Source: Eledone cirrhosa
Taxonomy: Eukaryota
Length of the DNA stretch: 64,000 bases
Direction: 5' to 3'
Assembly (NCBI GenBank): GCA_964016885.1
Contig: OZ024744.1
Span: 38,564,001-38,628,000, forward strand
Every line of letters starts with the position of its first letter. Position 1 is the stretch's first letter. Of this stretch, positions 41,856 through 63,960 are shown one piece after another. Below the pieces are notes generated by a model. That model saw nothing but the letters and a program-made list of their open reading frames with translations. It ran no database searches and was not told the origin of the DNA. Position numbers and translations under genes: made by a program.

Positions 41856-44800
41856 CTAAATATAGAAGGTGCTGCAAAGTTTTTTGGGCCAGTGGACCCT
41901 ACGACCTGAACGGGTCGTGGTCTTGTAACGTGGCGATGGTGGTGGTGTAGGGACAGGCGATGATGGTGGATCAGGAATAGTCGTTCGCTCAACAGGCAAA
42001 TACGAAGGGGTTCGTGGATCAGGAACCACAGCGTCCGTATCGAGGTGCGCCTGCTTAAGCCTGTCTAATGTAACTGTCACCCTGGACCCCTTAATATCTA
42101 ACGTGAAATGCTTAGCCGAGCGCGCTAAGACACGGTAAGGTCCAGTGTAAGGCTGTGTGAGCGGGGGCTTCACCGTATCATTCCTTACAAAGACATGCGT
42201 CCACGAGGCAATATCCCTCGGGACAGCAGTCTTGACAGATTGTTTCCTAGTGTCCATTGGCGGCAAATCCTGGAAATAGGAGCGCAAACGAGACACGTAG
42301 GAAGCGTGATCTTGGGCATCAAGATCGATAGGGGCAAGCATTTGCCCGGGCAACGTCAGAGGGGCACCGTACAGTACTTCGGCCGGTGAAAATCCAAAGT
42401 CAACCTTCACCGTTGACCGAATCCCTAGTAGCACAATAGGGAGGTACTCGCTCCAATGCGCCGAGTCCATTGAGGCCATTAAGGAGGCCTTCAGTTGGCG
42501 GTGAAAACGCTCCACCATACCATTCGAAGCGGGATGGTATGCCGTAGTTCGAATGCGTTTAGCACCAATTAATTTTGACAGCTCGAGGAAAAGGCTCGAC
42601 TCGAACTGTCGTCCACGGTCGGTAGTTATTGTGGATGGAACTCCATAACGAGAGATCCATCCAGACACAAGAGCACGTGCTGTTGTCTCCGCGGTGATGT
42701 TTTTCAAGGGGATGGCCTCAGGCCATCTCGAAAAACGGTCAATGACGGTAAGTAGATAAGAAAAAACCATCGCTGACAGGCCAAGGTCCCTCTATGTCAA
42801 TATGAATATGCGAAAAACGCGCATCTGGGTTAGCAAAGGTACCCATGGGAGCCTTGACGTGTCGATGGACCTTTGATCTCTGGCAAGCGACGCAGGAACG
42901 GCACCAAGCAGCAATTTCACGCCTCATATTTGGCCAGAAAAATTTAGCTGATATGAGCTTTGCTGTGGCAGAAGATCCTGGATGCGAGATACAATGTAAT
43001 CCCAGAAACACGGTCCGACGATGATTCTCTGGAACGAAGGGCCTAGGCACGTCCAACGAGACGTCGCAGAGAATTTGGCCAATTGCAGTCGACAGAGGCA
43101 AGTATTTCATCTCGCAATTCGCAAACTCGGGCGTTGTGACATCCAATGACTCAAGGGGAGGCTGATCCCCAGCCAAACGAGTCAGATCTATGTCAGAGGA
43201 TGACGATATCGCTGTCACGGGCAAGCGGGACAAAGCATCGGCCGCTGTATTTAGTGAACCCGGAATGTGCTGGATATCACTCGTATATTGCGAGATGAAA
43301 TCAAGGTGTCTCGTCTCTCTGGGCGAGTATTTATCAGCCTTCGCTTCTCAAAGCAAAAGTCAATGGTTTATGGTCAGTGAGGATAGTAAATTGTCTACCC
43401 TCTAGCACATGTGAAAAATGTTTCACGGCCAAATAGATGGCTAAAAGCTCTCTTCCAAAGGTGCTGTAGCGCGTCTCAGCAGGATTTAGCTTTTTGGAAA
43501 AAAACTCCAGCGGTTGCTGGTAACCATTGATGTTTTGCTGTAGTACTGCGCCCACAGCGATATCCGATGCATCAACACAAAGCGTTAGCTTTGCACCGGG
43601 TACCGGGTGAGTCAGTAACGAAGCATTAGCCAAAACAGTTTTGGCGTGCTGAAAATCAGCAAGTTGAGTGTCTGTCAAAGAAATATCTTTGTTCTTCCTC
43701 CGACAATTTTTCAAAATTTCTGTCAGGGAGAAAAGCAACTTGGCACAATTTGGCACGAAACGCCTATAAAAGTTAACCAGACCTAAGAACTGGCGTAACT
43801 GACGTAGTGAGGTCGGTGGAGGCAAATCCTCTATGACCTTAACTCGCTCAGGCCGGGGTCGAATTCCGTCAGCATCGATGACGTGACCCAAGAAAGTCAG
43901 TGACTCAGCACCAAAAACACATTTGGGTGCATTAAGCTGCACGTTATACGCCTTCAATCGGCGGAAAAGAAGATTCAAATGGTGCGTATGCTGCTCTGGA
44001 GAAGAACTAGCAATGAGCAGATCGTCAATATAGGTATAGACGAAATCGAGGCCGCGAGTAACCTCATCCATAAACCGCTGAAAAGTACTAGCGGCATTCC
44101 TTAATCCGAACGGCATAGTCAAAAACTCGAAAGACTCAAATGGCGTAACTATAGCCGTTTTTGGAATGTCATTTTTATGGACAGGAATTTGATGGTACGC
44201 ACGAATTAAATCCAGTTTGGAGAATATCTTGCATCCCTGCAACGAAGACGCAAAGTCTTGCAGATGAGGGATAGGATAACGGTCCGGTACCGTTATCGAA
44301 TTCAGGCGTCGATAATCTCCAGTAGGTCTCCAATCGCCATTCGCTTTCGGTACCATGTGTAATGGGGACGCCCACGGGCTCGTGGACGGACGAATAATCC
44401 CCATTTGCAGCATATGATCAAATTCTGATCGTGCTGCTTTGAGTTTGTCCGGAGGCAAGCGACGAGGACGAGAGAAAACGGGAGCACCAGTCGTAGATAT
44501 GAAGTGCTCCGTGGTATGAGTAGGTTCATCAAATCGAAAATTCCCCTGTGTCAGTTGCGGGAACGAGTTCAACAACGCATGGAAAGGATCACCGGTGTTA
44601 GCAAGAAAAAATATCGGGCTAACCGTTGGAACTCCTGCTGCCTTGCCAACAACAGTTAATCCCGTGATGCCATCAATTAGGCGTTTACCACGAAGGTCCA
44701 CCGTCAATGAAAAATGGTGGAGAAAATCCGCGCCTAGAATCGGATACGGCAAGGCAGCGACAGTAAATATCCATTTAAACTCGCGCCGCAGATTACGAAA

Positions 44801-45052
44801 CTGCAAAGGTAACGAGATTTGTTCGAAAGTTCGAATCGGCGAACAATTTACTGCCTGCAACTCAATAGGCGTCTCGGGGGGAGTCTCCTTCATACAACAC
44901 ACAGGCCATACGGAACAAGCTGCACCTGTGTCAACCAGAAAAGCTCTACCTGACAGCAGGTCCTCAATGAAAAAGTGGCGGTTAGATGTTGTTTCGCAGA
45001 GCGCACTATCCGCCGTTAGTGACTCTGGTCGTCTTTTCCCTCGTAAGTACAA
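41856..45052 (-). pseudogene. pol: Gypsy pol (protease, RT, RNase H, integrase) with two frameshifts
   Basis: [39 protein letters not shown] (HCISHPG..CVAC), [22 protein letters not shown]. Confidence 0.93.
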
Positions 45053-45729
45053 GGAGGCCTACAACGGGCTACGGTGGCGAGAAGTTGCATAACGTCGTGA
45101 GCGGCTCCTCTGCCGTCCAAAGGACCTGAATTCCGTGCACAACTCCGCCATTTGACGAGTCATGGCTTCCATAGTGGTGATTAATTTGTCATCAGACGCT
45201 GATGAGCGTGATTGAGGAAGAGGAAGCAACGTACTTTGGCTTCGAAGTGTCTCTCTTCGTCACCTCTACAATTTTGTCAGCAGAGACAGCAATGTGATCC
45301 AGGGTATTCACCTCTAGCATATGGGCTAGGATCGCCTGTACCTCTTGAGGTAGGCGAGAGAAGAACAATTGCTTCAGGAAAGGGCTATCCTGATCTTGGG
45401 AATCGCTCAAAGCCCGCAAATGCCGGAGAAAAGCGGTAGGGGTCCTGTCACCTAATCGTTCGTCCTCGATCAGTGACCGAAAACGACTCTCTACCGACTT
45501 ACAATTCCTCCTCAAAATCTCGCCCTTCAAAAACTCATACGTCAAGTCAGAGGGGGGGGGGGTCTGTAATTAGGTCTTGGACCGAATCTGCTAGATTAGG
45601 GGGAAGGCCGCTAATCAGTACAGCGAGGCGCTGGTCAGATTCGGTCTTACAGACCGTAAAATACGCCTGTAACTGGGCAAACCACATCTTAGGTTTTCCA
45701 GTAAAGGCGGGCAAATGTGGTACATTCAT
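45050..45729 (-). pseudogene. gag: Gypsy gag, frameshifted
   Basis: PAFTGKPKMWFAQLQAYF and LGDRTPTAFLRHLRAL; frameshift at the poly-C (~45550) and a break at ~45192. Confidence 0.85.
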
Positions 45730-46580
45730 GTCAACTTTTAAAATTAAAACAAATATATATACCTATATATCGAAAGAGCAATTAATGCACCCTTGTACAG
45801 TGAAAAGAGAACAGCCAATATTGAGAAAAAGTTAAAGGGCAAAAAGAAACAGACATTCAAAACATAAGGAAATATGCAAAATACATAAAATATAGATATA
45901 TATCTTTAAAAAAAAATTTTTCCTTCAACGTCTGTCCCGTCGCGTTGCCTCAACGAACCAGCCAAATCAAATAAGGTAAAAAAAGAGGAAGAAAAAAATG
46001 TTGTTTTTTTTTTAAATATGGATATCAACAAAGGTAGCCAGTGGCTAAAAATCCCTTATAAAAAGGTAAGGCATGTATATCCCCATGCGGGGCAGTTATG
46101 TTCACAATAAAAGTTTAGTCTCTTCTCTCTTGATCAGTCATGGAACACATACGCAATTCAAAAAATGTGTCCGTTACAAAACTGGGAAGGAACGCAACGC
46201 CACCTTGGAAAAATACACTTTTTTCTTTTTTCTTCTGTAAGTTGCGAAAAAGTTGGCAACGGAAATGGAATATTCAAGTGAATAAAAAAATTATCGACAC
46301 GAATGAATCGTTTTGATATTTCCGATGTGTGGTGGTTTGCGTCGGTAAGGCTAAGAAGCTGCCACTCACTATTCCCTGTTTTGGTCAGTGGTTAAACAAT
46401 GTTGTCGCTGATGCTGCTGTCGTTGTTGTTCTCGAGTGTAGCAAAAAGTTTTTGAAATACTACTAATTTTTCGATAATTTTAAAAGGATGATTTTTTATT
46501 TTCGCAAGATGCGAAAAAAAGGGCCGACAATGTGGCAATAAAAGGTCAATTGATGAAAAAGAAGGGCTGCGTTAAATTCT

Positions 46581-46594
46581 TACGTCGGTCACCA
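46581..46594 (-). promoter_or_regulatory. Primer-binding site, tRNA-Trp-like
   Basis: TGGTGACCGACGT just inside the 5' LTR. The tRNA-Trp 3' complement is TGGTGACCCCGACGT, so this copy is 2 nt shorter. Confidence 0.65.
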
Positions 46595-46595
46595 C

Positions 46596-46821
46596 TTTAG
46601 CAGTATTAGTTGTAGGTGTTATCGAGATGCAAGTGACATAATAACAGCAGAAATTAGAGATGAAATATACGTTTATTTTTTGATGTAGCACAAACAATGG
46701 TGTTGTACAGAGGCTGGTATCTGGAGTGTGATCCGTCGGCTTTCCAGTGGCTGTCTGTCTTTTCTTTCTGGCGTTCTCAACCGGCGTTGTTCTATCAAGG
46801 AGCGTGAGGCGTCTTACTACA
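46596..46821 (-). repeat. 5' LTR
   Basis: Element strand TGTAGTAAG...CTGCTAAA. Confidence 0.95.
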
Positions 46822-48739
46822 AATCTAAGGCGTTCGATAGGGTCGACCATGGTTACCTGGATGCGGTGCTAGCGGCGGCGGGCTTCGGACCCATTTTCAG
46901 GGGCTGGATTTCTGCCATGCACAGTGGCAACGTCTGCTCTAGGGTTAAAGTAAACGGCTACTTCTCGGAGCTGTTTCAAATCACCCGGTCCATCAGGCAG
47001 GGGTGCCCCCTCTCCTCCCTTCTGTACGTATTGGCTCTCGAGCCACTGCTGCGGAAGTTGGAGTTGATGCGGGGCATACCCCTGGAACCGGGATTGCACA
47101 AAGCGGTCTATGCCGACGACGTAACAGTAATGGTGGCGGACGCCTCGGAAATCGGAGCGATCGCCACCCTACTGGAGGAATACGAAAGGCTGACGGGGCT
47201 AGGCTGAACCGGGACAAATCAGTCGGTTTGCAACTCGGAACGTGGAGGGGAAAACCGATGCCGTTAGACGGTGTCGTCGGGCGGTGGACGGAGGGCCCGG
47301 TGAAGCTGCTCGGGGTCTGGTTCGGACCGGACCTCCAGGTGGAGAAGAATTGGGTCGAGGTGACGAGCAGGGTGTTTGCGCTGACCCAGAAGTGGGCCAA
47401 GTTCAAACTATCACTGAAAGGTCGGGCGGAGGTGACGAACGTTTACATAGCGTCCGTCATCTACTACCGCCTGACCGTCGTGCCTTGCCCCAAGGAAACG
47501 TTCACCATCATGGAGCGCATGCTCTTCCAGTTCCTCTGGAAGAAGCGGCCTCCCATGGTGAGGAGATCCATCTGCTGCCAGCACCCTTCGAAAGGAGGGC
47601 TGGGTATGCCGTGGCTGTTGATGCGTAGGCACGCATTGAGGCTACGGCATCTACAGGTATTCCTCACCGGTCAGCCGGTGTGGGCCCCGTTTGTGAGGTG
47701 AGCCTTCCCACAGCTCGTCTCGCTCACCGAGCTGCAATCCTGGGTGAAGCAAAGACCGAGAAAACTGGACAACTGGCACACCGAGTGTGCCCAGGCGCTC
47801 ACAGCTCTCTGGCAAGCGGACCCGACTATCAGTGGAGAATCCACCTCGACATTCTATAGAGGGCTGGTGGCTAGCAGGGGCGACGACACCCTTGGAGAGT
47901 CGCTAGGCATGGAGGAAGACGAACTGGCCAGCCTGTTCGGTAGAACTTTCGGCCCGGGACCCATGGACAACTTCCAGAGGTCCCTAACCTGGCAGTGCTA
48001 CCGGGGGGCTCTGCCCGTTCGAGAAAAGCTCTACAGACACGGGCGCCCGGGCAGGGATCCCGCGAAAAAGATCTGTCCCAGATGCGTGCGCGACGAGGAA
48101 ACAGTTGCGCACGCACTGGTACACTGCCCGGTCGTTGCCGATCTGTGGGGCTACGTCGACCGACTGCTGTCGCGTGTGGCACCGATTCGATTAACCGCCG
48201 AGTCTGTGGTGAACATCAAGCCGCCTCCTCCCTTCAGAAATGAAGCAGAGGCGGTCTTTCTGTGCGTAATAGCCATGATGAAAGAGGTTGTGTGGTGGAC
48301 GCGCCTGAAAGGTCTGAGGTCGGGTGACTTTCTCTCCGGCCAACACCTGGTTTACTTCTTCCGATACCACTTTGGAAGAAGGATCAGGATGGAGAGAGAA
48401 GTGCTTGGCCCCAGACAGTTTTATGAAAGGTGGGTGAAAAAAGCGAGAATGGCTCGTGTAAATGGGCCTTCTCTCTACATTGTTCTGTAGGTGAAGAATT
48501 GAAGAGGAAAGGGGGAGCGCCTCCTCTCTGGGCTTCCCCCGCGAAAAGGGTTGCACACTTTTCAGGGGTATGTGCAATCCCCAACACGCCCCCTCCCTTT
48601 TGAGGACTTTTTATTATTATATTATTCTTATTGTTATGCCTTTTTCTTTACTCGCATTTATGTAAACTCCCCCCTCTGTATTTGTCCCTTTCTCTTGTGC
48701 CCTAGTGGCAAATAAAGAAATATATCTATCTATCTATCT

Positions 48740-51700
48740 CCGGATGTTCTTCATATCGGCTCCTCGATTATTGGAGATATTACGTGTTAACAGTAAGTGT
48801 TTGTCTGTATTCTTGCGTTATTGTGTTAATTAACCCCCTTGCCTGAGTCTTCGGACATTAGGGTTAATTTATTTCACCCCTTTTTGGGGTGAATTTTTTC
48901 ATCCTAAAAATCTTGTGATTGTCTCTACACTAGTGGTAATGGAAGCCATTACCACAGGTAACGATGACACGCCCACTAAACAAACTGAAGGAGAGGGGGT
49001 AGCGGAGGCAACAAGCCTCCCTACTGCAAGAATAATGATTATTAGAAACATTGAAAAAATGGAGCCTAACCCTAATGAAAAAAATGTGAAAAAAATTGAC
49101 TCGGAGAAATTGCCAACATTAATGGATGCCGTTTCGACTTTTCACGCCCACCAGCAAAGGTGAAAGAGAAGTAGTAGCTGTGACTAAAAGTCTCTCGGAT
49201 ACTGAAAATATATGTGAACATTTTGAAGAAATGGAGTCTAACCACAACAGGGAAAAAATGTGAACGCATACACCAACACAAACACAACAACAAAAAATTG
49301 TAACAACAAAAACCAAGAAAACAACCACATTTCGACAAATGTAAACAAAGAGGGGCCGAACAAAATGACGTTCGCTCAAACTACCAAAAAAAACCATTGT
49401 GTGTGAACCTATTGACATTTCGAACATGGCCCAGCAAATGGAAAATGCACGGAAGTATATAACTTTGGAGGAGAATGGTCTATTTCCTTTAAATTCTCCC
49501 CCAGAGCTAAAAAAGGAAAATAGCTTAAAAACTATTATTTATAGGACAATATCCAACAAAACCCGTAAGCCAGTACAACTCACACAGATAGAGATTGAAC
49601 TGGCGTTAAAAGATCATCTGAAAAACATTGTATTCATTTGGAAGGATAGACTCTACGGTAGTCTATTCATCCAAATGAAAGATAAATTGACGGCCGAAAA
49701 ACATTCCCTGGCCCCAATTGTGTCCCCCTTATTTACCTTCTTCCCCATTTATTTGGGAAGAAGAACGCAAAGATTGGCCATACACAGTATCGATCCAGAT
49801 ATTGATTTCTGGGCGGTACTGTGTGGCCTCCTCGACTTGAAAGAGGAGGCAGTAATTTCGGTACGTAAGTCTTCCAGCAACGTGTTCGGTGGAACTAGCC
49901 TGCAAGTTCTGGTGCTAATGCAGGATCCCCAACCGCATATTGCTGGATGGGCTTACCTATTTACACATCACATTGGAGGGTAGACGACCCGCTTGTTACC
50001 TCTGTGGTGACAGAGGTCACCTGAGGGCTGCCTGTTCCCAAGCAAACAAAACAACACCGATTTTGCCCATACCAACAACTACAACACTACCAAAACAACC
50101 TCCACCACCTCCACAAAAAAGACTGACACCACAAGTTAAAACACATCTGAACCCCCCCCCCCGAAAACAAATACAATAACACCCACACCACAAACAAGAG
50201 CCAAAAATGTACCCCTCCCCTCGAATACGGAAGACGACCCCCTTTCGTCGTCAGACGAGGGGCCGGGACACTTTCATAAAGTTAAAAGAAAAAAAAAACA
50301 CACCACAGGAACACAAATACAAACAACCCCTCCCCAATACATAACACAGACATCAACACAAAAAAACACAACAGCAAACAAAAAACTTCACATAAAAGGA
50401 AAAATATGCATATACTTACATAAGTACAATAAACAAAAAACTGTTAAACGTTATTTATAACAACTTAATAAAAACCGAAGGTTCGGATTTCGCACAAGCA
50501 ACGGGGCTTCCCCATCTAAAAATGATAAAAGCCCCAATGGACATTTACAAAACGTTAAGACACTTTTAAAGAGGACGTGGGTCCCCCCTGCGTCAGACCC
50601 ATTAATCGTGTCCTCCTAAAAAATCCCCCCCCAGACACCCACACAACTCCAAACACCACAACCCCACCACACACTGATGCCCCTACACTTCCACAAACCA
50701 CCACCCCACCCAACAACCCATCCTCCACCCCCATGGAAATTGTGCGGTTCGGTCCCCGGGACGCAGAGAGGTAAGTGCCTTTTCTCTTTACCACCAACAT
50801 AGCTGTGTTGAGAGTAAGTTGTCTAAATGCGCGTGGCCTGGGCTCACCTTGGAAGCAAGCAATGCTTCTAAATGACCTGAGGTCACGATGTATATATGTG
50901 ATGGTTATTTGCGAGGCCCGGATCAGCAGTGTGCGACAGCTGGCCCCCACCTTTGATGACTATGAGATGCACGCATCTCTTTGTCAGCCCGGAGGTGAGC
51001 GTGGGGTTGTCGTTCTGCTGCAAAAACATCTGGGTCTCGCTACACAGACGGTACACTTGGACCCAGAGGGTCGACTAGTGTTTCTGGACCTTGGCATTGG
51101 TGAAGGCGGAGCTTTTAGGCTGGTCGCCGTCTACGGCCCTTTTGGGTCAACGCGGCCGGACTTCTTCCATCGTCTGGAGACTTTTCTAGGGACGTCCCGC
51201 TCCTTGCTTTTAGTGGGGGACTGGAATGGTATCCTAGATGCACGTTGGGACTATGTAGGGGCATGTCCTGATAGAGGGGGTTGTAACAGCCTCAAGGGTT
51301 AATCGGCCGATTCGACCTGGCCGATAGATATCGACTAGATTTTCCGACTGTGCCACTGTGGACTTGGACAAACGATAACGGTCAATCTAGATCGTACCTA
51401 GATAGGTTCTTAGTTAGAAATAAGGATAGGGACATTTTAAGTTGTCCAGAAATGCTCATGGTTGGCTATTCAGACCAAAAGTTAGTGACCTTCATGGTCA
51501 ACCTTGATAGAACGCATAGACAGGGACCCGATTACTGGAAGCTCAACTTGTCCTTACCGGCAAGTAAAGCTTACAGGGACCGGATTAGTACTTTAGTTAA
51601 GGAGCGGTTGACGGGCGCCATCGTCATCAGCAGGTGGTGGGGCTCTCTCAAAAGAGAGATTAGAGTAGCTTCAATAGGAGTTAGTAAGGAGTTAGCCTCA

Positions 51701-53903
51701 GATAGAAATAGGAAGGAAAGGGAGTTGGTAGATAGTGTAGAAGAGGCAATTAGAAGCGGCGACGTGGCCAGAGTACTAGCGTCGAGAACGGCCTTGGGCC
51801 AGTTCTTCGACGCGAAACACGAAGGCTGCGTTGTCCGAAGCAAAATACGTGCTCTGGGAAATGAGGGGACCAAAGCTGTTAGCTGGGCCCGCGTGATAGA
51901 AGCCAAAAGTGGGATTAGATCCACTATCCGGTCTTTGCGAGACCAGGATGGACGGGTGATCCTTGAACCTAAGCAGATGAGCGAGGCCTTTCAAAGGCAC
52001 TTTACCCGATTGTTCGGAAGGGGCGAGGGGCCGGATGGGGATGTGGACCTCGGTCCATACCTTGACGGCCTGCCGTATCTTTCGGACGAGGAGGCGAAGT
52101 CCTGCGAGAGGCCGATCTCAGCTGCTGAAATAGGGGACGTGCTGAGCCAATGCGGCAGACGCAAATCTCCGGGCCTCGATGGTCTTCCATACGAACTGTA
52201 TTTAAGTATGCCGGACTTGTTCTTCGATCTCCTCTAGGCGGTCTACTGCAACTGGCAACAGAACAGGAGAATTCCCTGTTCTGTGACTAAGGGCGTAGTC
52301 TCGCTAGTGAGGAAAGACGAGAACAAGGGGGATGAAATAAGTAATTTTTTGGCCCATAACTCTGCTAAATGCAGAGCTAAAGATTTTGGCCAAGGTGTTA
52401 GCAAAGATGTTGGCGCTTGTCGTGGGCAACCTGGTAGGAGATGCGCAGACATGCGCCATCCCGTCCAGGTCCATTCATGACAACCTCCATCTCATGCGAT
52501 ACATCATAGAGAGGGTTGGGAACGAACCCGGCTTTGGTTGGGCCCTGATCAACTTTGATCAATCTAAGGCGTTCGATAGGGTCGACCATCGTTACCTGGA
52601 TGCGGTGTTCGCTGCAGGTTTCGGACCCGTTTTCAGTGGCTGGATCACTGCCAGGCACAACAGCTTCATCTGTTCTAGGGTCAAGGTGAATGGCTACCTC
52701 TGGGAGCCGTTCGAAATCACGCGGTCCATCCGACAGGGATGCCCTCTCTCCACCCTTCTGTATGTATTGGCCCTAGAGCCACTGCTGCGGAAGTTGGAGT
52801 TGTTACAGGGCAGGAGATCCATCTGTTGTCAACACCCTTCGAAAGGAGGGCTGGGAATGCCGTGGCTGCTGATGCGTAAACACGCATTAAGGCTACGGCA
52901 CCTCCAGGTATTCCTCACCGGTCAACCGGTGTGTGCCCCGTTTATGAGGCGAGCCTTTCGAGACTCGTTTCGCTCACCGAGCTGCAGTCCTGGGGCAAGC
53001 AAAGACCGAGAAAACAGGGCGCCTGGTACACCGCGTGTGCCCAGGCGCTCACGGCTCTCTGGCAGGCGGACCCGGCTATCGGTGGAGACTCCACTTCGTC
53101 ATTCTATAAAGGGGTGGTGGTTAGTAGGTGCGACGACGCCCTCGGACAAGCCCTAGGAATGGAAGAAGACGAACTGGCCAGCCTATTCGGGAGGACATTT
53201 GGCCCGGGACCTATGGAAAACTGGGTCTCGCCCGGGACCCCTCGAAAAAGATCTGTCCCAGATGCGTGCGCCACGAGGAAACCGTTGCGCACGCATTGGT
53301 ACACTGCTCGGGCGTTGCCGATCTCTGGGGCTATGTCGAACGACTACTGTTACGGGTGGGACCATTCCGGTTGACCACCGAGTCCATTGTAACGATCAGC
53401 CCCCCCCCCCCCCACACCTTTCAAAAATGAAGGAGAGGCGGTGTTCCTCTGTGTAATAGCCACGGTGAAAGAGGTGGTATGGTGGACACGTTTGAAAGGG
53501 CTGAGGTCGGACACCTTTCTCTCTGGCTAACAACTGGTCCTTTTCTTTAAATACCATTTTAAGAGAAGGATCAGAATGGAGAGAGAGGTGCTCTACCCCA
53601 GCAAGTTTTATGAAAGGTGGGTGAAAGTAGCGAGAATGGCCCATGTAAATGGGCCTTCTCTCTTTATCAGCCTGTAGGTGGAAAGGTATAAGTTCAAAGG
53701 AGCACCCCCTCCCTGTGCTCCCAAGGAAAAGGGTTGCACACTCTTTCGGGGGGGGGGGGGTAACCTCCAAAACGCCTCCTCCCTATTGAGGACTGTATTG
53801 TTAATTTTATATTTGTTATTTGTTTTTTACTCGTTCTTTTATGTACCCCCCCCCCCCTGTATTTGTCCCCTTCTTTTGTGCCCTCGTGGCAAATAAATAG
53901 AAA
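48740..53903 (+). mobile_element. Tx1-like copy 5, full-length degenerate with internal deletions
   Basis: ORF1 (48939-50774) with CYLCGDRGHLRAAC, APE GDWN, RT deletion at ~52811, 3' UTR + TCTA. Confidence 0.93.
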
Positions 53904-53938
53904 CTTATCTATCTATCTATATATTTATCTATCTATCT

Positions 53939-56900
53939 TCGGAGAATATAGACATGATTTTGCTTCGCTCCTGAAGTTTGTTGGATATTTGTTACGAACA
54001 ACTGTAAGTTTGTTAATTAATTTGTTATTTGTTTAATTTAACCCCTCGTCTGGGCTTGAGAACGGTTGGTTAACAAACTTTCGCCCCTTTTAGGAGTGAA
54101 ATTTATAATTTGTTATTTTGAAAAGTCGTTTGACTAGAGTAATGGACGCCATTACTACGTCGCTTACGAACGAAAATGCCACACCCACCAAGAAAAGTGA
54201 TAGAGAGAAGGTAGGAGCACAACGCTCTAAGCCTTCCCTCCTCACTCTCTCTAAAGATATTATGGAAACGAATTTACCTAAAAAATTTGTGAAAATGGGT
54301 GCAAACCCAAACAGTTACAATAACACAAACAAGAACAACAATGACAACAACACCACAACCAGCAACAGCAATAACGACAACACCAACAAAGAAAAAAGTG
54401 AAGACAACAGGAAAAACAACAACAACAATGATAACAATATCAAAGTAAACGGACCCACAGCCGGAGTCTCTTTTGCACAGGCCGTCCGAGAGACTTACAC
54501 ATTATTGGACATATCAAATGCAAAAAACTTGCTAAAGGAAGCAAGAAAGTATGTAACTCTCGGGGAAGGTGGCGAATTTTCAATTACCTCCCCCCCCAAG
54601 AAATTCGAAGGGATACAGTACTAAGGACTATAACCTTCAGGACAATTTCGAACACTACTAGGAAACCGGCTCAATTATCTCAAACCGAAATTGAGCTGGT
54701 CCTAAGAAATGCGATGGAAGATATTTCTTTCATTCAGAAAGGAAGACTATACGGAAGTCTGTCAATTTTAATGAAAGACCAATTGACGACACAGAAATAT
54801 TGTGTGTCGCCAATTGTGTCCAAGCAATACACCTTTTTCCCCACATACTTGGGGAAACGCACACAAAAAATAAGAATCTCGAGCACCCGGCCAAATGCGA
54901 GCATTTGGTGGGTGATCACTGGATTCCTAGAAGGCAAATCCACCAGGGACGTATTCGGCAGTAATAGCGTTGAAGTTCTGGTCCAAATGAGACCAGAACG
55001 GATAGCTAAAATACCACAGCGTGTGTCCCTGGATGGAGTTGCCTTCATAAACATTTCTGTTGAGGGTAGGCGGCCTTCATGCTGCCACTTTTCAAGCAGT
55101 GGTCAGCTGAGGGCGTCCTGTCCTCAGTTGAATGCTCTGAAAAAAGGGGCACTATTTCCCACACCTAGAACAGTAGCACAACCACCACCACCACCACAAC
55201 AACAACAACAACAACACGAAAAAATAACAACACAAAATGTACCCCTCCCCAACAACACGACCATCACAACGGACGAGGCCCCATCATCACCCAGTGACGA
55301 TGAGGGGGAGCATTTCCGTCCGATAAAAAGAAAAAAGAAGAGACACCACACAGACAAAAATACAATAAACACACAACCACTAACACAAACAACACAAACA
55401 TCCCAGACAAAAAAAACCCTCCCGAAAACAAAGCAACAACACTCCAAACACCTAAAACAAAGCGAAAACATACACAAGAAACAGACAAAAACTAACACTA
55501 CACATGCATAAACTCAAACAATAAAACACTAATGAAGGCCATCGCCAAAAACCCTTCGGTGGAAACCGAGGGGAAACAATTCACAGAATATTCAAATAGA
55601 CCAAACTTAATGATGATCAGGGTCCCAACGGACACTGACAAATCGCTAAAAGAAAATTGTAAGGAGGACGTAGGGAACACCTGTATTAAACCTATGAACC
55701 TTATCCTTTTAAATTAAAATGTTTCACCACCTCCACCCCAGACACCCCCACTCCACCAGACATCGACGTTCCCACCCCGCCAGAAACCACCATCCTACCA
55801 AACAACCCCTCCAACACCCCATGGAAATTGTGCAGCCAGGTCCCCAGCAGACGAGGAGGTAGGTGTTTTCTTTCTTCTACTTTTAACTCTTCACCACCAA
55901 CATGGCTGATATAAGAGTTGGGTGCGTACATGTACGCGGCCTGGGGATGCCCTGGAAACAGGGCAAACTCTTAAATGACCTCAGGTCGCACAGTATAGAA
56001 GTAGTAGCCATTAGCGAGTCCAGGATCCACAGCAAGCGACAACTGACCCCCATCTTCGACGACTTTGAGATCTACGCATCTCTCTGTCAGCCGGAGGTGG
56101 AGGTGGAGTTGCCGTTTTGCTGCGGAAATACCTGGGCCTCGCAATACAGAAGGTACACTTGGACCCGGAGGGTCGAGTGGTGGTCCTAGACGTCGACAGT
56201 AGTGAAGGTGGAGCCTTCAGGCTGGTGGCCGCATATTCCCCATCCGGGACACCGCGGCCGGACTTCTTCAAACATCTAGAGACTTTTAGTGGGGGACTGG
56301 AATGGAATCCTAGATGCACGTTGGGACTATATAGGGCCATGTCCCGATAGAGGGGGGTGTAACAGCTTCAAACAGTTAATCGGCCGATTTGAACTGGCCG
56401 ATAGATACCGACTAGATTTTCCGACTGTGCCACTGTGGACGTGGACCAAATGTGCGAAACATCTAGATCGTGCCTAGATAGGTTTCTAGTTAGAAATAAG
56501 GATAGGGACATGTTAAAGCTGTCCACAAATGTTCATGGTTGACTATTCAGATCACAAATTAGTAACCTGCTTAATCAACCTTGATAGAATCCATAGAAAG
56601 GAACCCGACTACTGGAAGCTGAACTTGTCGTTACCAACAACCAAAGCGTACATTAGTCGAATTAGCACATTAGTTAAGCAACAGTTGACGGGGGAAATAG
56701 TCAACAACAGGTGGTGAGGCTCTCTCAACAGAGCAATTAGATTAGAATCAATAGGATTTAGCAAGGAAGTAGCGCTAGATAGAGTTAAAACGGAAAAAGA
56801 ATTAGTAGATAGAGTAGAAGAGGCGCTTACGAGTGGCAACGTGACCAGCGTGCTGGCGTCAAGAACGGCGTTAGACCTGTTCTTTGACGCGAAGCACGAG

Positions 56901-59121
56901 GGCTGCGTTGTCAGGAATAAAACACGTGCTCTAGGAAAAGAGGGAGCCAAAGCTGTTAGCTGGGCCCGAGTGACAGAGGCAAAAAGTGGAAACAAGTCCA
57001 CGATTCGGTCTTTGAAGGACCAGGATGGATGTGTGATCTTTGAACCGGAGCGGATGTGCGCGGTATTTCAGCGGCACTTTGCACGACTGTTCGGGAAGGG
57101 CGGCGCGCCAGGAGAGACTATGGATTTCGGTCCATACCTCGACGGTCTGCCGCGACTCTCGGACGGGGTGGCGAAGTCCTGCGAAGGGCCGATTTCAGCC
57201 GCTGAAATAGGGGACGCGCTGAGCCAATGCGGCAAACGTGAATCTCCGGGTCTTGATGGTCTACCATACGAACTTTACGTAGCTATATCGTGCTTGTTCT
57301 CCGATCTCCTCAAGGCGGTCTACTGCAACTGGCAACAGAACGAGAGAATTCCCAGCTCTGCGACCAAGGGTGTAGTCACGCTAGTGAGGAAGGACGAAAA
57401 CAAGGGGGACCACATAGGAAACTTCAGGCCCATAACTCTGCTAAATGCAGAGTCAAAGATTTTGGCCAAGGTGTTAGCGAAGAGGTTGGCGCTTGTCGTC
57501 GGGAACCTGGTGGGAGAAGCGCAGACATGCGCAATCCCGTCCAGGTTCATACACGACAACCTCCACCTCATGCGATACATCGTAAAGAGAGTAGGGAGTG
57601 AACCCGGCTTCGGTGGGGCCCTGATCAACTTGATTCAATCTAAGGCGTTCAGTAGGGTCGACCATCGTTACCTGGATGCGGTGTACGCTGCAGCAGGCTT
57701 CGAACCGGTTTTCAGGAGCTGGATTGCTGCTATGCACAGCTACAACATCTGCTCAAGGGTCAAAGTGAACGGCTACCTCTCGGAGCGGTTCCAAATCACA
57801 CGATCCATCTGACAGGGATGCCCTCTATCCTCCCTTCTGTATGTACTGGCTCTTGAGCCACTACTGTGGAAGTTGGAGCTGTTGCAGGGCATCCCTTTAG
57901 TACCGGCATTGCGGAAAGCGGTGTCGGCCTACGCCGAAGACGTGACAGTAATGGTGTCGAGCGCCTCGCAAATCGGGGAGATCGGCACCTTACTGGAGGA
58001 ATACGAAAGGTTTACCGGAGCGAAGCTGAACCGGGACGATGCGCAAACACGCGCTCAGGTTGCGGCACGTCCACGTATTCCTCACCGGACAACCGGTGTT
58101 GGCCCCGTTCGTGAGGCGAGCCTTCCCACGACTCGTCTCGCTGACCGAGCTGCAATCCTGGGTCAAGCAAAGACTGAGAAAAGTGGACGACTGGCACATT
58201 GAATGTGCCCAGGAGCTCACGGCCCTCTGACAAGCGGACCCGACAATCAGTGGAGACTCCACCTCGACATTTTATAGAGGGTTGGTTCACAGCAAGTGCA
58301 ACGACGCTCTCGGAGAAACTCTGGGCATGGAGGAGGACGAACTAGCCAGTCTGTTCGGTAGGACGTTCGGCCCGGGACCGATAGACAACTTCCAAAAGTA
58401 CCTGGCTTGGCAGTGCTACCGAGGAGCTGCATCCGTTCTGGACAAGCTCTACTGACACGGGCGTGCGGGCAGGGACCCTTCGAAAAAGATCTGTCCGAGA
58501 TGCATGCGCGATGAGGAAACCATCGCACACGCATTCGTACACTTCCCGGGCGTTACCGACCTGTGGGACTATGTAGAACGACTATCGTCACGGGTGGGAC
58601 CAATCCGGTTGACCACCGAGTCCATTGTCACGATCAAACCGCCACCCCTCTTCCAAAACGAAGGAGAGGCGGTCTTCCTCTGTGTTATGGCTATGGCAAA
58701 AGAGGTTATATGGTGGACGAGATTGAAAGGGCTGAGGTCAGACAACTTTCTCTCCGGTCAACAACTGATTCTTTTTTTCAAATATCATTTTGGAAGAAGA
58801 ATCAGGATGGAGAGAGAGGTGCTGTACCCCAGCAAGTTTTACGAAAGGTGGGTGAATGTGGCAAAGATGGCCATAGTGGTTGGGCCTTTTCTTTATATAA
58901 GCCTGTAGGACGAGGAAGAAGAGGAAGAGAGGAGAGGAGTGTTCGCCCTTCGTGCTACTGGAGATGAGGGTTGTACATTTTATTTCGGGGTGTGTGCAAC
59001 CCTATTGGAGATTTTGTTTGTTTTATTGATCATTTTTGTTATACATTTTTACATGCCTTATATGTAAACTCCTCAATTGTATTTGTCCCCATCTTTTCCG
59101 TCCTTGTGGCAAGTAAAGAAA
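53939..59121 (+). mobile_element. Tx1-like copy 6, full-length degenerate
   Basis: ORF1 (54142-55862), APE, RT with a deletion at ~58036, 3' UTR + TCTA. Confidence 0.93.
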
Positions 59122-59151
59122 TATATCTATCTATCTATTTATCTATCTATC

Positions 59152-59362
59152 TGAGGAAAAAGAGGAAGAGAGGAAGGGAGTAGTCACTCTTGGTACTCCT
59201 GGAGATGAGGGTTGTACATTTTTTCGGGGTGTGTACAGCCCCTATTGGGGATTTCAATTGTTATTTGTTATTGTATTAATAGTTTTATTTTCATATACCT
59301 GTATGTAAACTCGCCATTTGTATTTGTCTCCTTCTTTTGTGCCCTTGTGGCTAATAAAGAAA
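59152..59362 (+). mobile_element. Tx1-like copy 7, 3' UTR only
   Basis: Highly similar to 11411-11640; flanked by (TCTA)n. Confidence 0.9.
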
Positions 59363-59709: not shown

Positions 59710-59792
59710 CTCAATCAATCTCTCTTTCGCTCTCTATCTATCTATCTATCAATCAATCTCTCTCTCGCTCTCTATCTATCTATCTAATCATC
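59363..59792. repeat. TCTA-derived minisatellite (~38-bp unit)
   Basis: Repeats of TCTATCTATCTATCTCTCAATCAATCTCTCTTTCGCTC with variants. Confidence 0.9.
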
Positions 59793-62700
59793 ACTGACAC
59801 CAACACAAAAGAGCTCACAACAGCAAACAAAAAACACCACACAAAAACAAAAACATGCATACACATACATAAACACAAGAAACAAAAAACTGTTAAACAT
59901 TGTGTACAACAACAATCTAATAAAAACACAAGGGCCTAACTTCACCCAGGCAAAGAATTTCCCCCACCTCAAAATGATTAAGGCCCCACAGGACACCTAT
60001 AAAACTTTAAAAAACAATTTTAAAGAGGACGTGGGTCCCCCCTGCGTCGGGCCCATTAACCGCGTACTCCTAAAAAACTATCCCACCCCCTCCCCAAACA
60101 CCCACACAACTCCAAGCTCCCCAACCACACAACACACTGATGCCCCCACACTTCCACAAACCACCACCCCACCCAACAACCCATCCCCCACCCTAATGGA
60201 AATTGTGCAGCCCGATACCCGGGACGCAGAGAGGTAAGTGCCTTTTCTCTTCACCACCAACATGGCTATGCTAAGAGTAGGCTGTTTAAATGCGCGTGGC
60301 CTGGGCTCAACTTGGAAGCAAGCAATGCTTCTAAATGACCTCAGGTCACAACGTATAGATGTGATGGTTATTTGCGAGGCCCGGATCAGCAACGTGCGAC
60401 AGCTGGCCCCCACCTTTGATGACTTTGAGATGCACGCATCTCTCTGTCAGCCCGGAGGTGGGGGTGGAGTTGTCGTTCTGCTGCAAAAACATCTGGGTCT
60501 CGCAACACAGATGGTACATTTGGACCCGGAGGGTCGACTAGTGGTTCTGGACCTTGGCAGTGGTAAAGGCGGAGCGTTTAGGTTGGTAGCCGCCTACGGC
60601 CCTTTCGCCAATGCGGCCGGACTTCTTCCATCGTCTGGAGACTTTTCTAGGGACGTCCCGCTCCTTGCTATTAGTGGGGGACTGGAATGGTATCCTAGAT
60701 GCACGCTGGGACTACGTAGGGCCTGCCCCGATAGAGAGGGATGTAATAGCCTCAAAGGGTTAATCGGTCGATTTGACCTGGCCGATAGATATCGACTAGA
60801 TTTTCCGACTGCGCCAACCTGGACTTGGGCAAATCGCAGCGGATCATCTAGGTCGTACCTAGATAGGTTCTTAGTTAGAATTAAGGATAAGGACTTTTTA
60901 AGTTGTCCAAAAATGCGCATGGTTGGCTATTCAGACCACAAATTAGTGACCTGCATGCTCAACCTTGACAGAACTCATAGACAGGGACCCGGTTACTGGA
61001 AGCTCAACTTGTCCTTACCGGCAAGTAAGGCTTACAGGAACCGGATTAGCACTTTAGTTAAGGAGCGGTTGACGGGCGCCATCGTCAACAGCAGGTGGTG
61101 GGGATCTCTCAAAAGAGAGATTAGAGTAGTCTCTATAGAATTTAGTAAGGAGTTAGCCTCAAATAGAAATAGGAAGGAAAGGGAGTTGATAGATAGTGTA
61201 GAAGAGGCAATTAGAAGCGGCGACGTGGCCAGAGTGCTAGCGTCGAGAACGGCCCTGGGCCAGTTCTTCGAGGCGAAACACGAAGGCTGCATCGTCCGAA
61301 GCAAAATACGTGCTCTGGGAAACGAGGGGACCAAAGCTGTTAGCTGGGCCCGCGTGACAGAAGCCAAAAGAGGGAGCAGATCCACTATCCGGTCTTTGCG
61401 AGACCAGGATGGACGGGTGATCCTTGAACCTAAGCAGATGTGCGAGGCTTTTCAAAAGCACTTTGCCAGATTGTTCGGAAGGGGCGGGGGGCCGGTTGGG
61501 GACGTGGACTTCGGTCCATACCTCGACGGCCTGCCGCGTCTCTCGGACAGGGAGGCGAAGTCCTGCGAGGAGCCGATTTCAGCCGCTGAGATAGAGGACG
61601 TGCTGAGCCAATGCGGCAAACGCAAATCCCCGGGTCTCGATGGTCTTCCATACGAACTATATCTAGTTATGCCGGACTTGTTCCCCGAACTCCTTGAGGC
61701 GGTCTACTGCAACTGGCAACAGAACGGGAGAATTCCCTGTGCTGTGACCAAGGGCGTAGTCACGCTAGTGAGGAAGGACGAGAACAAGGGGGACGATACA
61801 AATAATTTCAGGCCCATAACTCTGCTAAATACAGAGTTACAGATTTTGGCCAAGGTGCTAGCAAAGAGGTTGGCGCTTGTCGTGGGCAACCTGGTGGGAG
61901 ATGCGCAGACATGTGCTATCTCGTCCAGGTCCATCCACGATAACCTCCACCTCATGCGATACATCATAGAGAGGGTTGGGAACGAACCCGGCTTTGGTGG
62001 GGCCCTGATCAACTTGGATCAATCTAAGGCATTCGATAGGGTCGACCATCGTTACCTGGATGCGGTGCTAGCGGCGGCAGGCTTCGGACCCGTTTTCAGG
62101 GGCTGGATCAATGCCATGCACAGCAGCCGCATCTGCTCTAGGGTCAAGGTGAACGGCTACCTCTCGGAGCCATTCGAAATCGCGCGGTCCATCCGACAGG
62201 GGTGCCATCTCTCCTCCCTTCTGTATGTAATGACTCTAGAGCCACTGCTGCGGAAGTTGGAGTTGTTGCAGGGCATCCCGTTGGAACCGGGATTGCGGAA
62301 AGCGGTGTCAGCCTACGCCGATGACGTAACAGTAATGGTGTCGACGGCCTCGGAAATCAGGGCGATCGGCACCTTACTGGAGGAGTACGAAAGGTTTACA
62401 GGGGCTAAGCTGAACCGGGACAAGTCGATCGGTTTGCAACTCGGCACGTGGAGGGGCAGATCGATGCCCTCCGATGGCGTCGTCGGGCGCTGGACGGAGG
62501 GCCCGGTGAAGTTGCTCGGGGTCTGGTTCGGACCAAACCTCCAGGTGGAGAAGAACTGGGGTGAGGTGACGAACAGGGTATTTGCACTGACCCAGAAGTG
62601 GGCCGAGTGCAAACTGTCCCTGAAAGGACGGGCGGAGGTGGCGAACACTTATATAGCGTCCGTCATCTACTACCGCCTGACCGTTGTGCCTTGCCCAAGG

Positions 62701-63960
62701 GAAACGCTCGCCAAAATGGAGCGCGCACTCTTCCAATTCCTTTGGAAGAAGCGGGCTCCTTTGGTGAGGAGATCCATCTGCTGTCAACACCCTTCGAAAG
62801 GAGGGCTGGGGATGACGTGGCTAATGATACGTAAACACGCATTAAGGCTACGGCACCTTCAGGTATTCCTCTCCGGTCAACCGGTGTGGGCCCCGTTTGT
62901 GAGGCGAGCCTTTCCCAGACTCGTCTCACTCACCGAGCTGCAATCCTGGGTCAAGCAAAGACCGAGAAAACTGGGCGCCTGGCACACCGAGTGTGCCCAG
63001 GCACTCACGGCTCTCTGGCAGGCGGACCCGGCTGTCAGTGGAGAATCCACCTCGTCATTCTATAGAGGGCTGGTGGTTAGCAGGTGCGACGACGCCCTTG
63101 GAGAAGCCCTAGGCATGGAGGAAGACGAACTGGCCAACCTGTTCGGTAGGACATTCAGTCCGGGACCCATGGATAACTTCCAGAGGTCCCTGGCCTGGCA
63201 ATGCTACAGAAGGGCTCTGCCCGTTCGAGAAAGGCTCTACAGACACGGGCGCCCGGGTAGGGACCCATCGAAAAAGATATGTCCCAGATGCGTGTGCGAC
63301 GAGGAAACCGTTGCACACGCATTGGTACACTGCTCGGGCATTGCCGATCTGTGGGGTTATGTCGAACAACTGCTGTCAAGGGTGGGACCAATCCGGTTGA
63401 CCACCGAGTCTATTGTAACGATCAAGCCGCCTCCCCTCTTCAAAAACGAAGGAGAGGCGGTATTTCTGTGCGTAATAGCCATGGCGAAAGAGGTTGTATG
63501 GTGGACGCGTCTGAAAGGACTGAGGTCAGACACCTTTCTCTCTGGCCAACAACTGGTCCGTTTCTTCCGATATCATTTCGGAAGAAGGATCAGGATGGAG
63601 AGAGAGGTGCTGCACCCCAGCCGTTTCTATGAAAGATGGGTGAAAGTGGCGAGAATGGCCCGTGTGAATGGACCTTCACTCTACATCAGACTATAGGTGA
63701 GGAAGATGAAAGACCAAGGGAGCACCCCTTCTCTGTGCTCCTGAGGAGAAGGGTTGCACACTTTTTTCGGGGGTGTGTGCGACCCCCCAAGGCGCCTCCT
63801 CTCTATTGAGGACTTTGTTATAAATTTTATTTTTTGTTATATTTTATTTTATTTTTATATATTGTTATTGCCTCCTCCTTATTAAGGACGCCTTGTTTTG
63901 TAAACTCCCCCCATTGTACTTGTCCCACTTTTGATGCCCTGGTGGCAAATAAAAGAAACA
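59793..63960 (+). mobile_element. Tx1-like copy 8, truncated in ORF1, open ORF2, ~20-bp TSD
   Basis: TSD TATCTAT[C/G]TATCTAATCATC at 59773-59792 and 63961-63980. Confidence 0.95.
60262..63696 (+). CDS. Tx1-like ORF2: APE endonuclease, reverse transcriptase, CCHC (1144 aa from the Kozak ATG)
   Basis: LNARGL, CE, LDRF, SDH, SPGLDG, FRPITLLN, DQSKAFDRV, YADD, CPRC..H..HC. About 37 aa of EN are out of frame between compensating deletions. Confidence 0.88.
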   Translation: MAMLRVGCLNARGLGSTWKQAMLLNDLRSQRIDVMVICEARISNVRQLAPTFDDFEMHASLCQPGGGGGVVVLLQKHLGLATQMVHLDPEGRLVVLDLGSGKGGAFRLVAAYGPFANAAGLLPSSGDFSRDVPLLAISGGLEWYPRCTLGLRRACPDREGCNSLKGLIGRFDLADRYRLDFPTAPTWTWANRSGSSRSYLDRFLVRIKDKDFLSCPKMRMVGYSDHKLVTCMLNLDRTHRQGPGYWKLNLSLPASKAYRNRISTLVKERLTGAIVNSRWWGSLKREIRVVSIEFSKELASNRNRKERELIDSVEEAIRSGDVARVLASRTALGQFFEAKHEGCIVRSKIRALGNEGTKAVSWARVTEAKRGSRSTIRSLRDQDGRVILEPKQMCEAFQKHFARLFGRGGGPVGDVDFGPYLDGLPRLSDREAKSCEEPISAAEIEDVLSQCGKRKSPGLDGLPYELYLVMPDLFPELLEAVYCNWQQNGRIPCAVTKGVVTLVRKDENKGDDTNNFRPITLLNTELQILAKVLAKRLALVVGNLVGDAQTCAISSRSIHDNLHLMRYIIERVGNEPGFGGALINLDQSKAFDRVDHRYLDAVLAAAGFGPVFRGWINAMHSSRICSRVKVNGYLSEPFEIARSIRQGCHLSSLLYVMTLEPLLRKLELLQGIPLEPGLRKAVSAYADDVTVMVSTASEIRAIGTLLEEYERFTGAKLNRDKSIGLQLGTWRGRSMPSDGVVGRWTEGPVKLLGVWFGPNLQVEKNWGEVTNRVFALTQKWAECKLSLKGRAEVANTYIASVIYYRLTVVPCPRETLAKMERALFQFLWKKRAPLVRRSICCQHPSKGGLGMTWLMIRKHALRLRHLQVFLSGQPVWAPFVRRAFPRLVSLTELQSWVKQRPRKLGAWHTECAQALTALWQADPAVSGESTSSFYRGLVVSRCDDALGEALGMEEDELANLFGRTFSPGPMDNFQRSLAWQCYRRALPVRERLYRHGRPGRDPSKKICPRCVCDEETVAHALVHCSGIADLWGYVEQLLSRVGPIRLTTESIVTIKPPPLFKNEGEAVFLCVIAMAKEVVWWTRLKGLRSDTFLSGQQLVRFFRYHFGRRIRMEREVLHPSRFYERWVKVARMARVNGPSLYIRL

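Follow-up and report, generated by a model that had tools for sequence, protein, structure and literature searches.

A conserved splice-donor motif at the ORF1 end of a Tx1/L1-type LINE from Eledone cirrhosa and the possible splicing of its ORF2

Introduction

LINEs make an excess of ORF1p over ORF2p, which is ascribed to inefficient reinitiation on one unspliced RNA. A stretch of 64,000 nucleotides from the Eledone cirrhosa genome (contig OZ024744.1, here called the window) includes several LINE copies in which the end of ORF1 reads as a splice donor and the end of ORF2 as a possible acceptor. The locus raises the question of whether a LINE could remove its ORF2 from part of its transcripts by splicing. 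The original prediction was that the entire ORF2 is a spliceosomal intron bounded by the two stop codons. A comparable arrangement is described for Drosophila copia, where pol lies in an intron of about 3 kb and the spliced mRNA terminates at the 3' end of the element itself (PMC5580714).

Results

The element family and its copies in the window

To judge from its domains, its ORF1 knuckle and its targets, the family is a young, microsatellite-targeting LINE of the Tx1/L1 type. The ORF2 of intact copies matched Pfam Exo_endo_phos, RVT_1 and zf-RVT, and its best PDB match was human L1 ORF2p (E 1.7e-56). Intact ORF1s, of about 580-640 aa, include a CCHC knuckle (C-x2-C-x4-H-x4-C) that was read directly and had no Pfam match. 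The targets flanking clade I elements were (TATC)n, and those flanking elements of clades II and III were (ATT)n. Named database matches were hypothetical proteins of Argonauta and Octopus, with no named Tx1 reference among them. The family is abundant, with more than 10,000 3' ends in one clade and many intact copies of ORF1. The Tx1-clade elements Kibi and Koshi also combine an ORF2 with APE, RT and zinc finger, a CCHC ORF1 and insertion into microsatellites; the targets of the present family, (TATC)n and (ATT)n, differ from theirs, and splice signals in Tx1 elements go unmentioned in the available portion of that paper (PMC4494074). In Octopus vulgaris, 13 recently active L1-Tx1 families have been described in a report whose main text does not mention splicing (PMC13282606).

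The features of the window are listed in Table 1. Of the copies numbered 1 to 8, copies 4 and 5 form a single element interrupted by a Gypsy insertion, so that the window contains seven elements. Copy 8 is 94.8% identical to the full-length copy L130 across 4.2 kb. It is a dead member of a live family: truncation at 59792 left it without a promoter and most of ORF1, and about 36 of its endonuclease codons are shifted out of frame by small deletions at two places, near 60608 and 60718.

Table 1. Copies of the LINE in the window and features of copy 8 (a slash within a motif marks the putative splice site)
Feature	Position	Strand	Remarks
Copy 1	7357..11700	+	Donor 8249, acceptor 11408; internal deletion
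Copy 2	32377..35750	+	Donor 33222, acceptor 35513; internal deletion
Copy 3	35827..37748	+	5'-truncated; acceptor 37475 only
Copy 4/5	38299..48739	+	Donor 39614, acceptor 48490; Gypsy insertion ~41404-46821 inside
Copy 6	49369..53938	+	Donor 50771, acceptor 53677
Copy 7	54109..59152	+	Donor 55859, acceptor 58908
Copy 8	59792..63960	+	5'-truncated Tx1/L1-type LINE: ORF1 tail, linker, ORF2, 3'UTR; within (TATC)n
5' splice-donor motif AG/GTAAGT over ORF1 AGG TAA	60232..60239	+	Putative intron start 60234
Putative intron	60234-63696	+	3463 nt; spans ORF2 of copy 8
Inter-ORF linker	60240..60264	+	Pyrimidine-rich, ends in Kozak-like CCAAC ATG; ORF2 start 60262
ORF2	60262..63696	+	APE endonuclease, RT, C-terminal zinc finger; Pfam RVT_1 and zf-RVT in copy 8; endonuclease locally out of frame
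Predicted hairpin	63657..63674	+	Inside putative intron, ~25-40 nt upstream of putative acceptor
Putative 3' splice acceptor	63673..63697	+	Weak coding pyrimidine tract and CTATAG/G; TAG is the ORF2 stop
3'UTR	63697..63960	+	Purine-rich head, predicted stem-loop, U-rich tract, AATAAA 63948, then (TATC)n

A donor motif conserved across clades and reading frames

The six donors of the window were all in place, and in all six copies the motif overlaps the ORF1 stop as AGG TAR, as had been proposed. The claim that it persists in spite of ORF1 divergence also held, since the ORF1 proteins compared are 28-49% identical and the donor is invariant. Copy 1 has TAG/GTAAGG, but of its 30 nearest relatives in the genome most have GAG/GTGAGT. 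Across 6/6 multi-copy lineages of this one genome, AG/GTRRGT was invariant at 8/8 columns (offsets -2 to +6), compared to 12/120 columns in the ORF1 tail, 3/16 in the linker and 57/256 in the 3'UTR; DNA identity between the three clades is 65-70%. GTRRG was present in 50 of 53 junctions. The motif matches AG/GTRAGT, the consensus for U2-type 5' splice sites, and in two full-length clade I copies it is the only word that agrees with the donor at 7 or more of 8 positions. A metagenome scan for relatives returned three short distant fragments, none with a junction.

The motif could be a by-product of a terminal Arg codon, a stop codon and shared ancestry. The copies in the window do have a common ancestry, and the clade I sequence AGG TAR G holds the donor core by construction. 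However, the donor lies in phase 2 in L130 (585 open codons), phase 1 in L161 (658 open codons) and phase 0 in L167 (480 open codons), and it persists with each of the ORF1 stops TAA, TGA and TAG; therefore, neither the protein nor the stop context explains it. The motif survives where it encodes G-K-stop or V-S-K, Arg codons were invariant in just 12 of 55 cases, and invariance at 8/8 columns, when four-fold synonymous sites are invariant in 97/299 cases, has, by our own arithmetic, a probability of about 1e-4. An origin by chance is largely refuted and we regard it as very improbable.

The position of the motif suggests another function, in which the resemblance to a donor would be incidental. 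It lies 27-47 nt ahead of the ORF2 start, which has a Kozak-like context and follows a conserved linker rich in pyrimidines in all lineages, and could serve translational coupling of ORF1 and ORF2 by termination-reinitiation, a mechanism used by L1 and SART1 (PMC5972666), or bind some other RNA- or DNA-binding factor. Against this, the ORF1 stop shifts relative to the fixed motif (+1, +5 and +27), the only variable positions are the purines at +3 and +4, which are degenerate in the donor consensus as well, and the motif does not resemble the UGGGA core of the TURBS described in PMC5972666. Such a function is improbable, though less so than chance. Three further candidates were rejected: a micro-intron within the linker, as an AG precedes the ORF2 ATG in some lineages only; a recursive splice site, as the pyrimidine tract is on the wrong side; and a second conserved donor at the ORF2 end, which is absent in lineages IIa and IIIb.

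The comparison of lineages strongly supports the donor half of the intron reading, in which the motif would act as a 5' splice site. The motif never lies 3' of the ORF1 stop, and a spliced ORF1 would therefore terminate in the last exon.

A weaker candidate acceptor at the ORF2 end

All seven ORF2 ends of the window read CT(G/A)TAG/G, in agreement with the original prediction. Among 91 distinct ends, in a tally that admitted TAG and TAA only (the unfiltered list had no TGA), the stop was TAG in 82 and TAA in 9, all of one clade; the codon changed once on the tree. This is a neutral level of conservation, as two-fold purine sites were invariant in 32 of 66 cases. In lineage IIIa the TAG has become TAA and the AG is lost, yet the donor is perfect; an AAG/GT, which might compensate, is present 7 nt farther downstream. 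The mean pyrimidine fraction at -22 to -5 was 0.69, the tract being poorer in clades II and III, and no conserved branch-point motif was seen by eye at -18 to -40. Among the conserved YAGs (137 conserved AG columns) the ORF2 end is one of the two most pyrimidine-rich, tied with a TTAG in the endonuclease region (60674); a conserved YAG at 63065 also scores equally in pyrimidine content. The acceptor half of the intron reading is possible but unproven. Of 9 natural representatives, 7 fold completely into the predicted hairpin near the ORF2 end and one more does so partly; the hairpin is a lead only.

These results divide the original prediction. Its donor side stands in three clades and three phases, and its acceptor side does not go beyond neutral expectation and fails in lineage IIIa. 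The description of an intron bounded by two stop codons applies to clade I and lineage IIIa only; in clade II and lineage IIIb the donor comes before the ORF1 stop, which falls 5 or 27 nt within the putative intron. Free variation of the stop codon and the GT/AG context, which had been named as evidence against splicing, was found at the acceptor and not at the donor.

The imbalance between the two sites is consistent with a different role, in which U1 snRNP would bind the motif functionally without the ORF2 stop as a partner site. Such binding could suppress polyadenylation nearby or stabilize the bicistronic RNA, or the donor could be joined to another acceptor, such as the TTAG at 60674 or a downstream host exon. 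The persistence of the donor in lineage IIIa, the neutral conservation of the acceptor and the equally pyrimidine-rich YAGs all agree with this possibility. In addition, 5 of 6 elements have an AWTAAA that precedes the donor by 279-435 nt, and anti-termination by U1 has been described for Arabidopsis EVD (PMC5580714). The upstream AWTAAA may, however, merely mirror the A-richness of ORF1, and ORF2, with 0-2 AWTAAA per element and 23-25% A, would leave little downstream for U1 to protect. We consider a U1 site of this kind a tentative but substantial possibility, somewhat short of even.

Predicted ends of a spliced ORF1

Joining the two candidate sites reproduced the ORF1 ends that had been predicted: R-stop in copy 8, RLRKKRKRGREY-stop in copy 1 and RLKKRAK-stop in copy 2. 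The predicted tails have 36 residues in copy 6 and about 40 in copy 7. Past the AG, the frame dictated by the donor runs into a stop within three codons in 10 of 15 lineages, compared to 3 of 29 unused frames; this was a hand tally, and its naive Fisher p of 0.0002 has to be discounted, as related lineages are not independent. For a lineage with TAG/ACTGA at the ORF2 end, phase 1 was predicted before retrieval and then found. The early in-frame stops of clades II and IIIb are left unexplained if the motif is a U1 site unconnected to the ORF2 end. Five of the 15 lineages have no such early stop, and their tails would have 6 to about 78 residues; moreover, within clade I the stop after the AG toggles between TGA and TGG, and lineages that would not use phase 1 retain the phase-1 stop. 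A search among proteins with ORF1 words for spliced tails gave no match, and no tail encoded by the 3'UTR was present among the ORF1 relatives listed by HMMER (150 of 227). The protein endings DQGK-stop, PAR-stop and PEG-stop are compatible with spliced and unspliced forms alike.

Search for copies lacking ORF2

Retrotransposition of the spliced RNA would leave copies precisely lacking ORF2, for which the original prediction had suggested a search. In one subfamily, none was found among 2432 heads of the 3'UTR; the bases typical of ORF2 were missing upstream of 2 of 2434 heads, both of them small deletions in normal ORF2 ends. Spliced-junction probes of three clades gave no match against 1631, 1493 and 343 unspliced junctions, where the clade I probe requires a 3'UTR word that is absent from copy 1 of the window, the probes covered lineages other than IIIa, and the count of 343 is narrowed by a terminal V. 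ORF1 was joined to the 3'UTR in none of 60 retrieved ORF1 ends, and no family of the HAL1 or SpIRE type, with ORF1 joined precisely to the 3'UTR, was found. L061/L062, L221/L222 and L243 were considered as spliced copies and rejected, as they contain small indels. Any retrocopy longer than about 270 nt would show the junction. Its absence in these searches, which the original prediction had named as a sign against splicing, counts against the splicing reading. The absence of spliced genomic copies in the probed clades is also in favor of a U1 site that does not pair with the ORF2 end.

When contigs of four of six runs, of unspecified kind, were compared to copy 8, the joint from 60233 to 63697 was absent among the 15 joints listed (there were 183 further joints). 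One run, X4, had relatively more depth over ORF1 and the 3'UTR, although contig depth cannot rank the parts of an element.

A GT..AG segment of 60-70 nt, rich in AT, was observed in several unrelated 5'UTRs. It was precisely removed in none of the 100 listed.

Discussion

Any explanation has to account for the motif itself, its conservation independent of frame and stop codon, the AG that most lineages have where ORF2 ends, and the lack of copies without ORF2. A strong donor combined with a weak acceptor is the retroviral arrangement for balanced splicing. It is also that of copia, and the candidate sites of the present LINE have the same form. On this sequence evidence, we give an even chance to balanced, copia-like splicing that would produce an ORF1-only mRNA that is not retrotransposed. 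U1 would bind the conserved donor at the ORF1 end, and part of the transcripts would be spliced to an acceptor, probably the weak AG at the ORF2 stop, giving the ORF1-only mRNA. The unspliced RNA would be translated into ORF2p and would be the one copied into the genome. The purpose may be an excess of ORF1p or a damping of ORF2p. The lack of ORF2-less retrocopies would follow from a strict cis preference or from the loss of an RT-recognition hairpin located in the intron. The chances are likewise even that the EN-RT gene is a retained intron over its whole 3.4 kb, possibly with a second one in the 5'UTR.

Among known systems, copia and the Arabidopsis Ty1/Copia element EVD also have a donor where the structural-protein ORF ends and a structural-only mRNA beside the full-length RNA, although splicing is putative in the present case (PMC5580714). 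Copia and EVD belong to the LTR class, have one gag-pol ORF and depend on splicing to obtain a gag stop (PMC5580714), whereas the element described here is a LINE whose ORF1 has its own stop. Human L1 also has splice sites within its bicistronic RNA, and its spliced RNAs are detectable as genomic copies, the SpIREs (PMC5860796). The SpIRE sites lie in the 5'UTR or the start of ORF1, and the products, about 1.8% of full-length copies, are regarded as dead ends (PMC5860796); the present donor, in contrast, lies at the ORF1 end, has been under long-term selection and has no spliced copy that could be found. HAL1s, ORF1-only derivatives, have the look expected of a retrotransposed spliced RNA, but they are genomic non-autonomous families (PMC5753468), of which none was found in the three clades here. 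Introns of TART, as described in PMC1636488, are antisense only.

Our literature search found no report of such ORF2-removing splicing for a LINE. Nor did it yield a precedent for the main alternative, a U1 site maintained by selection where the ORF1 of a LINE ends. Selection on the donor across three clades and three frames indicates that the family depends on the spliceosome or U1. If the splicing hypothesis is correct, LINEs would have a means of setting the ratio of ORF1p to ORF2p that is new for such elements. Removal of ORF2 by splicing would represent convergence of a LINE on the strategy of copia and retroviruses, and host splicing regulators could then toggle the element between harmless and mobile states.

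The LINE Family

Seven elements of one LINE family occupy the window (contig C28, 3.0-Gb assembly), all on the + strand and stacked inside one another's tails. Copies 4 and 5, which the original prediction had counted separately, are a single element divided by a Gypsy insertion. Intact relatives encode an APE endonuclease, a reverse transcriptase (RT) and a zinc finger, the best solved-structure match of ORF2 is human L1 ORF2p, and the named protein relatives come from Argonauta hians and Octopus, which makes an octopod host probable. Insertion targets are (TATC)n or (ATT)n. By domains and targets, the family appears to work like Kibi and Koshi, the microsatellite-targeting Tx1 elements described in PMC4494074. 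Copy 8 is truncated at its 5′ end (59792) and its endonuclease frame is locally shifted; the splicing question therefore concerns the family and not this copy. The regular spacing of lineage IIb copies at two loci reflects head-to-tail arrays of full-length elements, and this lineage is very young. In Octopus bimaculoides, the RhoGEF10-like gene model P0003 opens with ~40 residues of ORF2 of this family, either by exonisation or as an annotation artefact.

Coordinates of features in the window and in other genomic copies of the LINE family
Feature	Location	Strand	Remarks
Gypsy-type LTR element	41404-46821	-	RT, RNase H and integrase-like frames; in ORF2 of copy 4/5
Piece of another RT	22377-23561	+	Weak RVT_1 match; outside this LINE family
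Bare 3′UTR	59155-59364		Copy 1 type; in TATC tract directly 3′ of copy 7
Dispersed short repeat, likely SINE	19597-20073, 12340-12529, 28262-28894		Also adjoins other genomic LINE copies
Intact lineage IIb ORF1 copies	G000:C4:276745348-276758741; C12:26453510-26466917		Every 5.84 kb
GT..AG segment	First 30-110 nt of full-length elements L130 (G000:C1:73284000-73291000), L161, L204, L216, L177	- (L130)	Read by eye

The Donor at the End of ORF1

All of ORF2 had been proposed to be an intron running from a donor at the ORF1 end to the AG of the ORF2 stop codon. The six donors and seven acceptors listed in that proposal are all present at the positions it gave, and its predicted spliced ORF1 tails were reproduced. 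Conservation was assessed in 47 elements with both ends, belonging to three clades with 65-70% DNA identity; three ORF1 proteins compared share 28-49% identity. Positions -2 to +6 of the donor were invariant (8/8 columns) across the six multi-copy lineages, as compared to 12/120 in the ORF1 tail, 3/16 in the linker and 57/256 in the 3′UTR. The synonymous baseline in ORF2 was 97/299 invariant four-fold sites and 12/55 Arg codons. GTRRG was present in 50 of 53 junctions, the other three being single copies.

The donor phase, set from long open ORF1s, is 2 in clade I (585 open codons) and lineage IIIa (200), 1 in lineages IIb (658) and IIIb (299), and 0 in part of lineage IIa (480). The stop that the clade I donor overlaps is TAA, TGA or TAG depending on the subfamily, and the distance from the donor to the ORF1 stop downstream is 1, 5 or 27 nt depending on the lineage, so the description of the intron as bounded by two stop codons does not hold generally. 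Since the motif outlasts changes in frame, amino acid and stop, varying only at the +3/+4 purines, it is selected as an RNA or DNA sequence. The conserved ORF1-end donor is established, and its origin by chance is scarcely credible. The motif matches the 5′ end of U1, which gives the simplest reading. A reinitiation signal, of the kind treated in PMC5972666, is unlikely and fits poorly because the ORF1 stop shifts while the motif stays fixed.

The Putative Acceptor at the End of ORF2

Conservation across the family, proposed as a check of both sites, exceeded the baseline at the donor but not at the putative acceptor, where 9/21 columns upstream of the ORF2-end AG are invariant, below the ORF2 average (1963/3432). 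Of 91 distinct ORF2 ends, 82 have the stop TAG and nine, all from a single clade, have TAA, under a filter that admitted only these two codons; among 100 listed clade I ends, unfiltered, 97 have TAG and none TAA or TGA. As two-fold purine sites of ORF2 are invariant in only 32/66 cases, a single TAG/TAA change on the tree is unremarkable. The ORF2-end AG and the conserved TTAG at 60674 in the endonuclease region of copy 8 share the highest pyrimidine content (0.69) of any YAG among the 137 conserved AG columns. No conserved branch point was seen by eye upstream of the ORF2-end AG. Lineage IIIa has TAA at the ORF2 end, AG|GT 7 nt downstream and a perfect donor. In a single copy, L123 (~5757), CAG|G occupies the acceptor position and the ORF2 stop follows two codons further on. 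The ORF2-spanning intron is putative and unproven. A hairpin predicted just upstream of the AG folds in 7/9 representatives; splicing to this AG would remove it, and its relevance to RT recognition is speculation.

In a hand tally, the frame set by the donor reaches a stop within three codons past the ORF2-end AG in 10/15 lineages versus 3/29 unused frames, and in the lineage with TAG|ACTGA phase 1 was predicted beforehand and then found. These early stops hint at use of the AG. The hint carries modest weight, because the lineages are related, clade I alternates TGA and TGG, five of the 15 lineages would have tails of 6 to ~78 residues, and the phase-1 stop is also retained where it would go unused.

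Genomic, Protein and 5′UTR Evidence

Copies precisely lacking ORF2, for which a genome scan had been suggested, were not found in clades I and II or lineage IIIb. Spliced-junction probes gave 0 versus 1631 unspliced junctions in clade I (this probe misses some 3′UTR types), 0 versus 1493 in clade II and 0 versus 343 in lineage IIIb, lineage IIIa being outside the probe set, and fetched ORF1 ends were joined to 3′UTR in 0/30 and 0/30 cases. In the copy 8 subfamily, 2432 3′UTR heads had ORF2-type upstream bases; in the two that did not, an otherwise normal ORF2 end carries a small deletion. Probing for any sequence other than the linker 3′ of the donor in copy 8 yielded two short indels. Because the putative junction is only ~270 nt from the 3′ end, the failure to find spliced copies counts as a genuine negative, meaning that ORF1-only RNA is scarce in the germ line, is not mobilised, or is not produced at all. 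One of 30 copies, L024, has its 5′ end almost exactly at the putative acceptor (1498-1500) with an AT-rich flank, probably a chance truncation. Human SpIREs make up ~1.8% of full-length L1s but still encode ORF2p, according to PMC5860796, which also describes cis preference.

Among relatives listed from protein libraries, none has an ORF1 tail encoded by the 3′UTR. P0005 is a complete 603-aa ORF1 whose longest contig (2209 nt) is about the size expected of an ORF1-only transcript.

Lineages Ia, IIa, IIb, IIc and IIIa have unrelated 5′UTRs, each with a ~60-70 nt AT-rich GT..AG segment near the 5′ end. In Ia it is intact in 100/100 listed copies (of 392), one with an internal deletion at the segment's 3′ end, and a search of genomic copies for its precise removal found none. 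Intact segments agree with a division of the RNA into one fully spliced and one fully unspliced pool, and equally well with no splicing.

Proposed Mechanism and Significance

In the most likely mechanism, to which we give an even chance, U1 would bind the donor, and in a fraction of the RNA splicing would join it to the weak ORF2-end AG, producing an ORF1-only mRNA with the native 3′UTR and AATAAA, while unspliced RNA would supply ORF2p and transpose in cis. By the NMD rule, a donor no further 3′ than the ORF1 stop would leave that stop in the last exon, with no 3.7-kb 3′UTR. The main rival, a U1 site that functions without the ORF2-end acceptor, is a tentative but substantial possibility. It has a precedent in EVD, where U1 blocks premature termination (PMC5580714), and 5/6 elements have an AWTAAA 279-435 nt 5′ of the donor, although there are few AWTAAA within ORF2.

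For L1, both cryptic splicing and HAL1 families with ORF1 alone have been described (PMC5753468). In the literature searched (main texts, mostly without subscription journals and Repbase reports), neither a selected donor at the ORF1 end nor an intron spanning ORF2 was described for a LINE. Splicing of this kind is a strategy already known for copia-type LTR elements.
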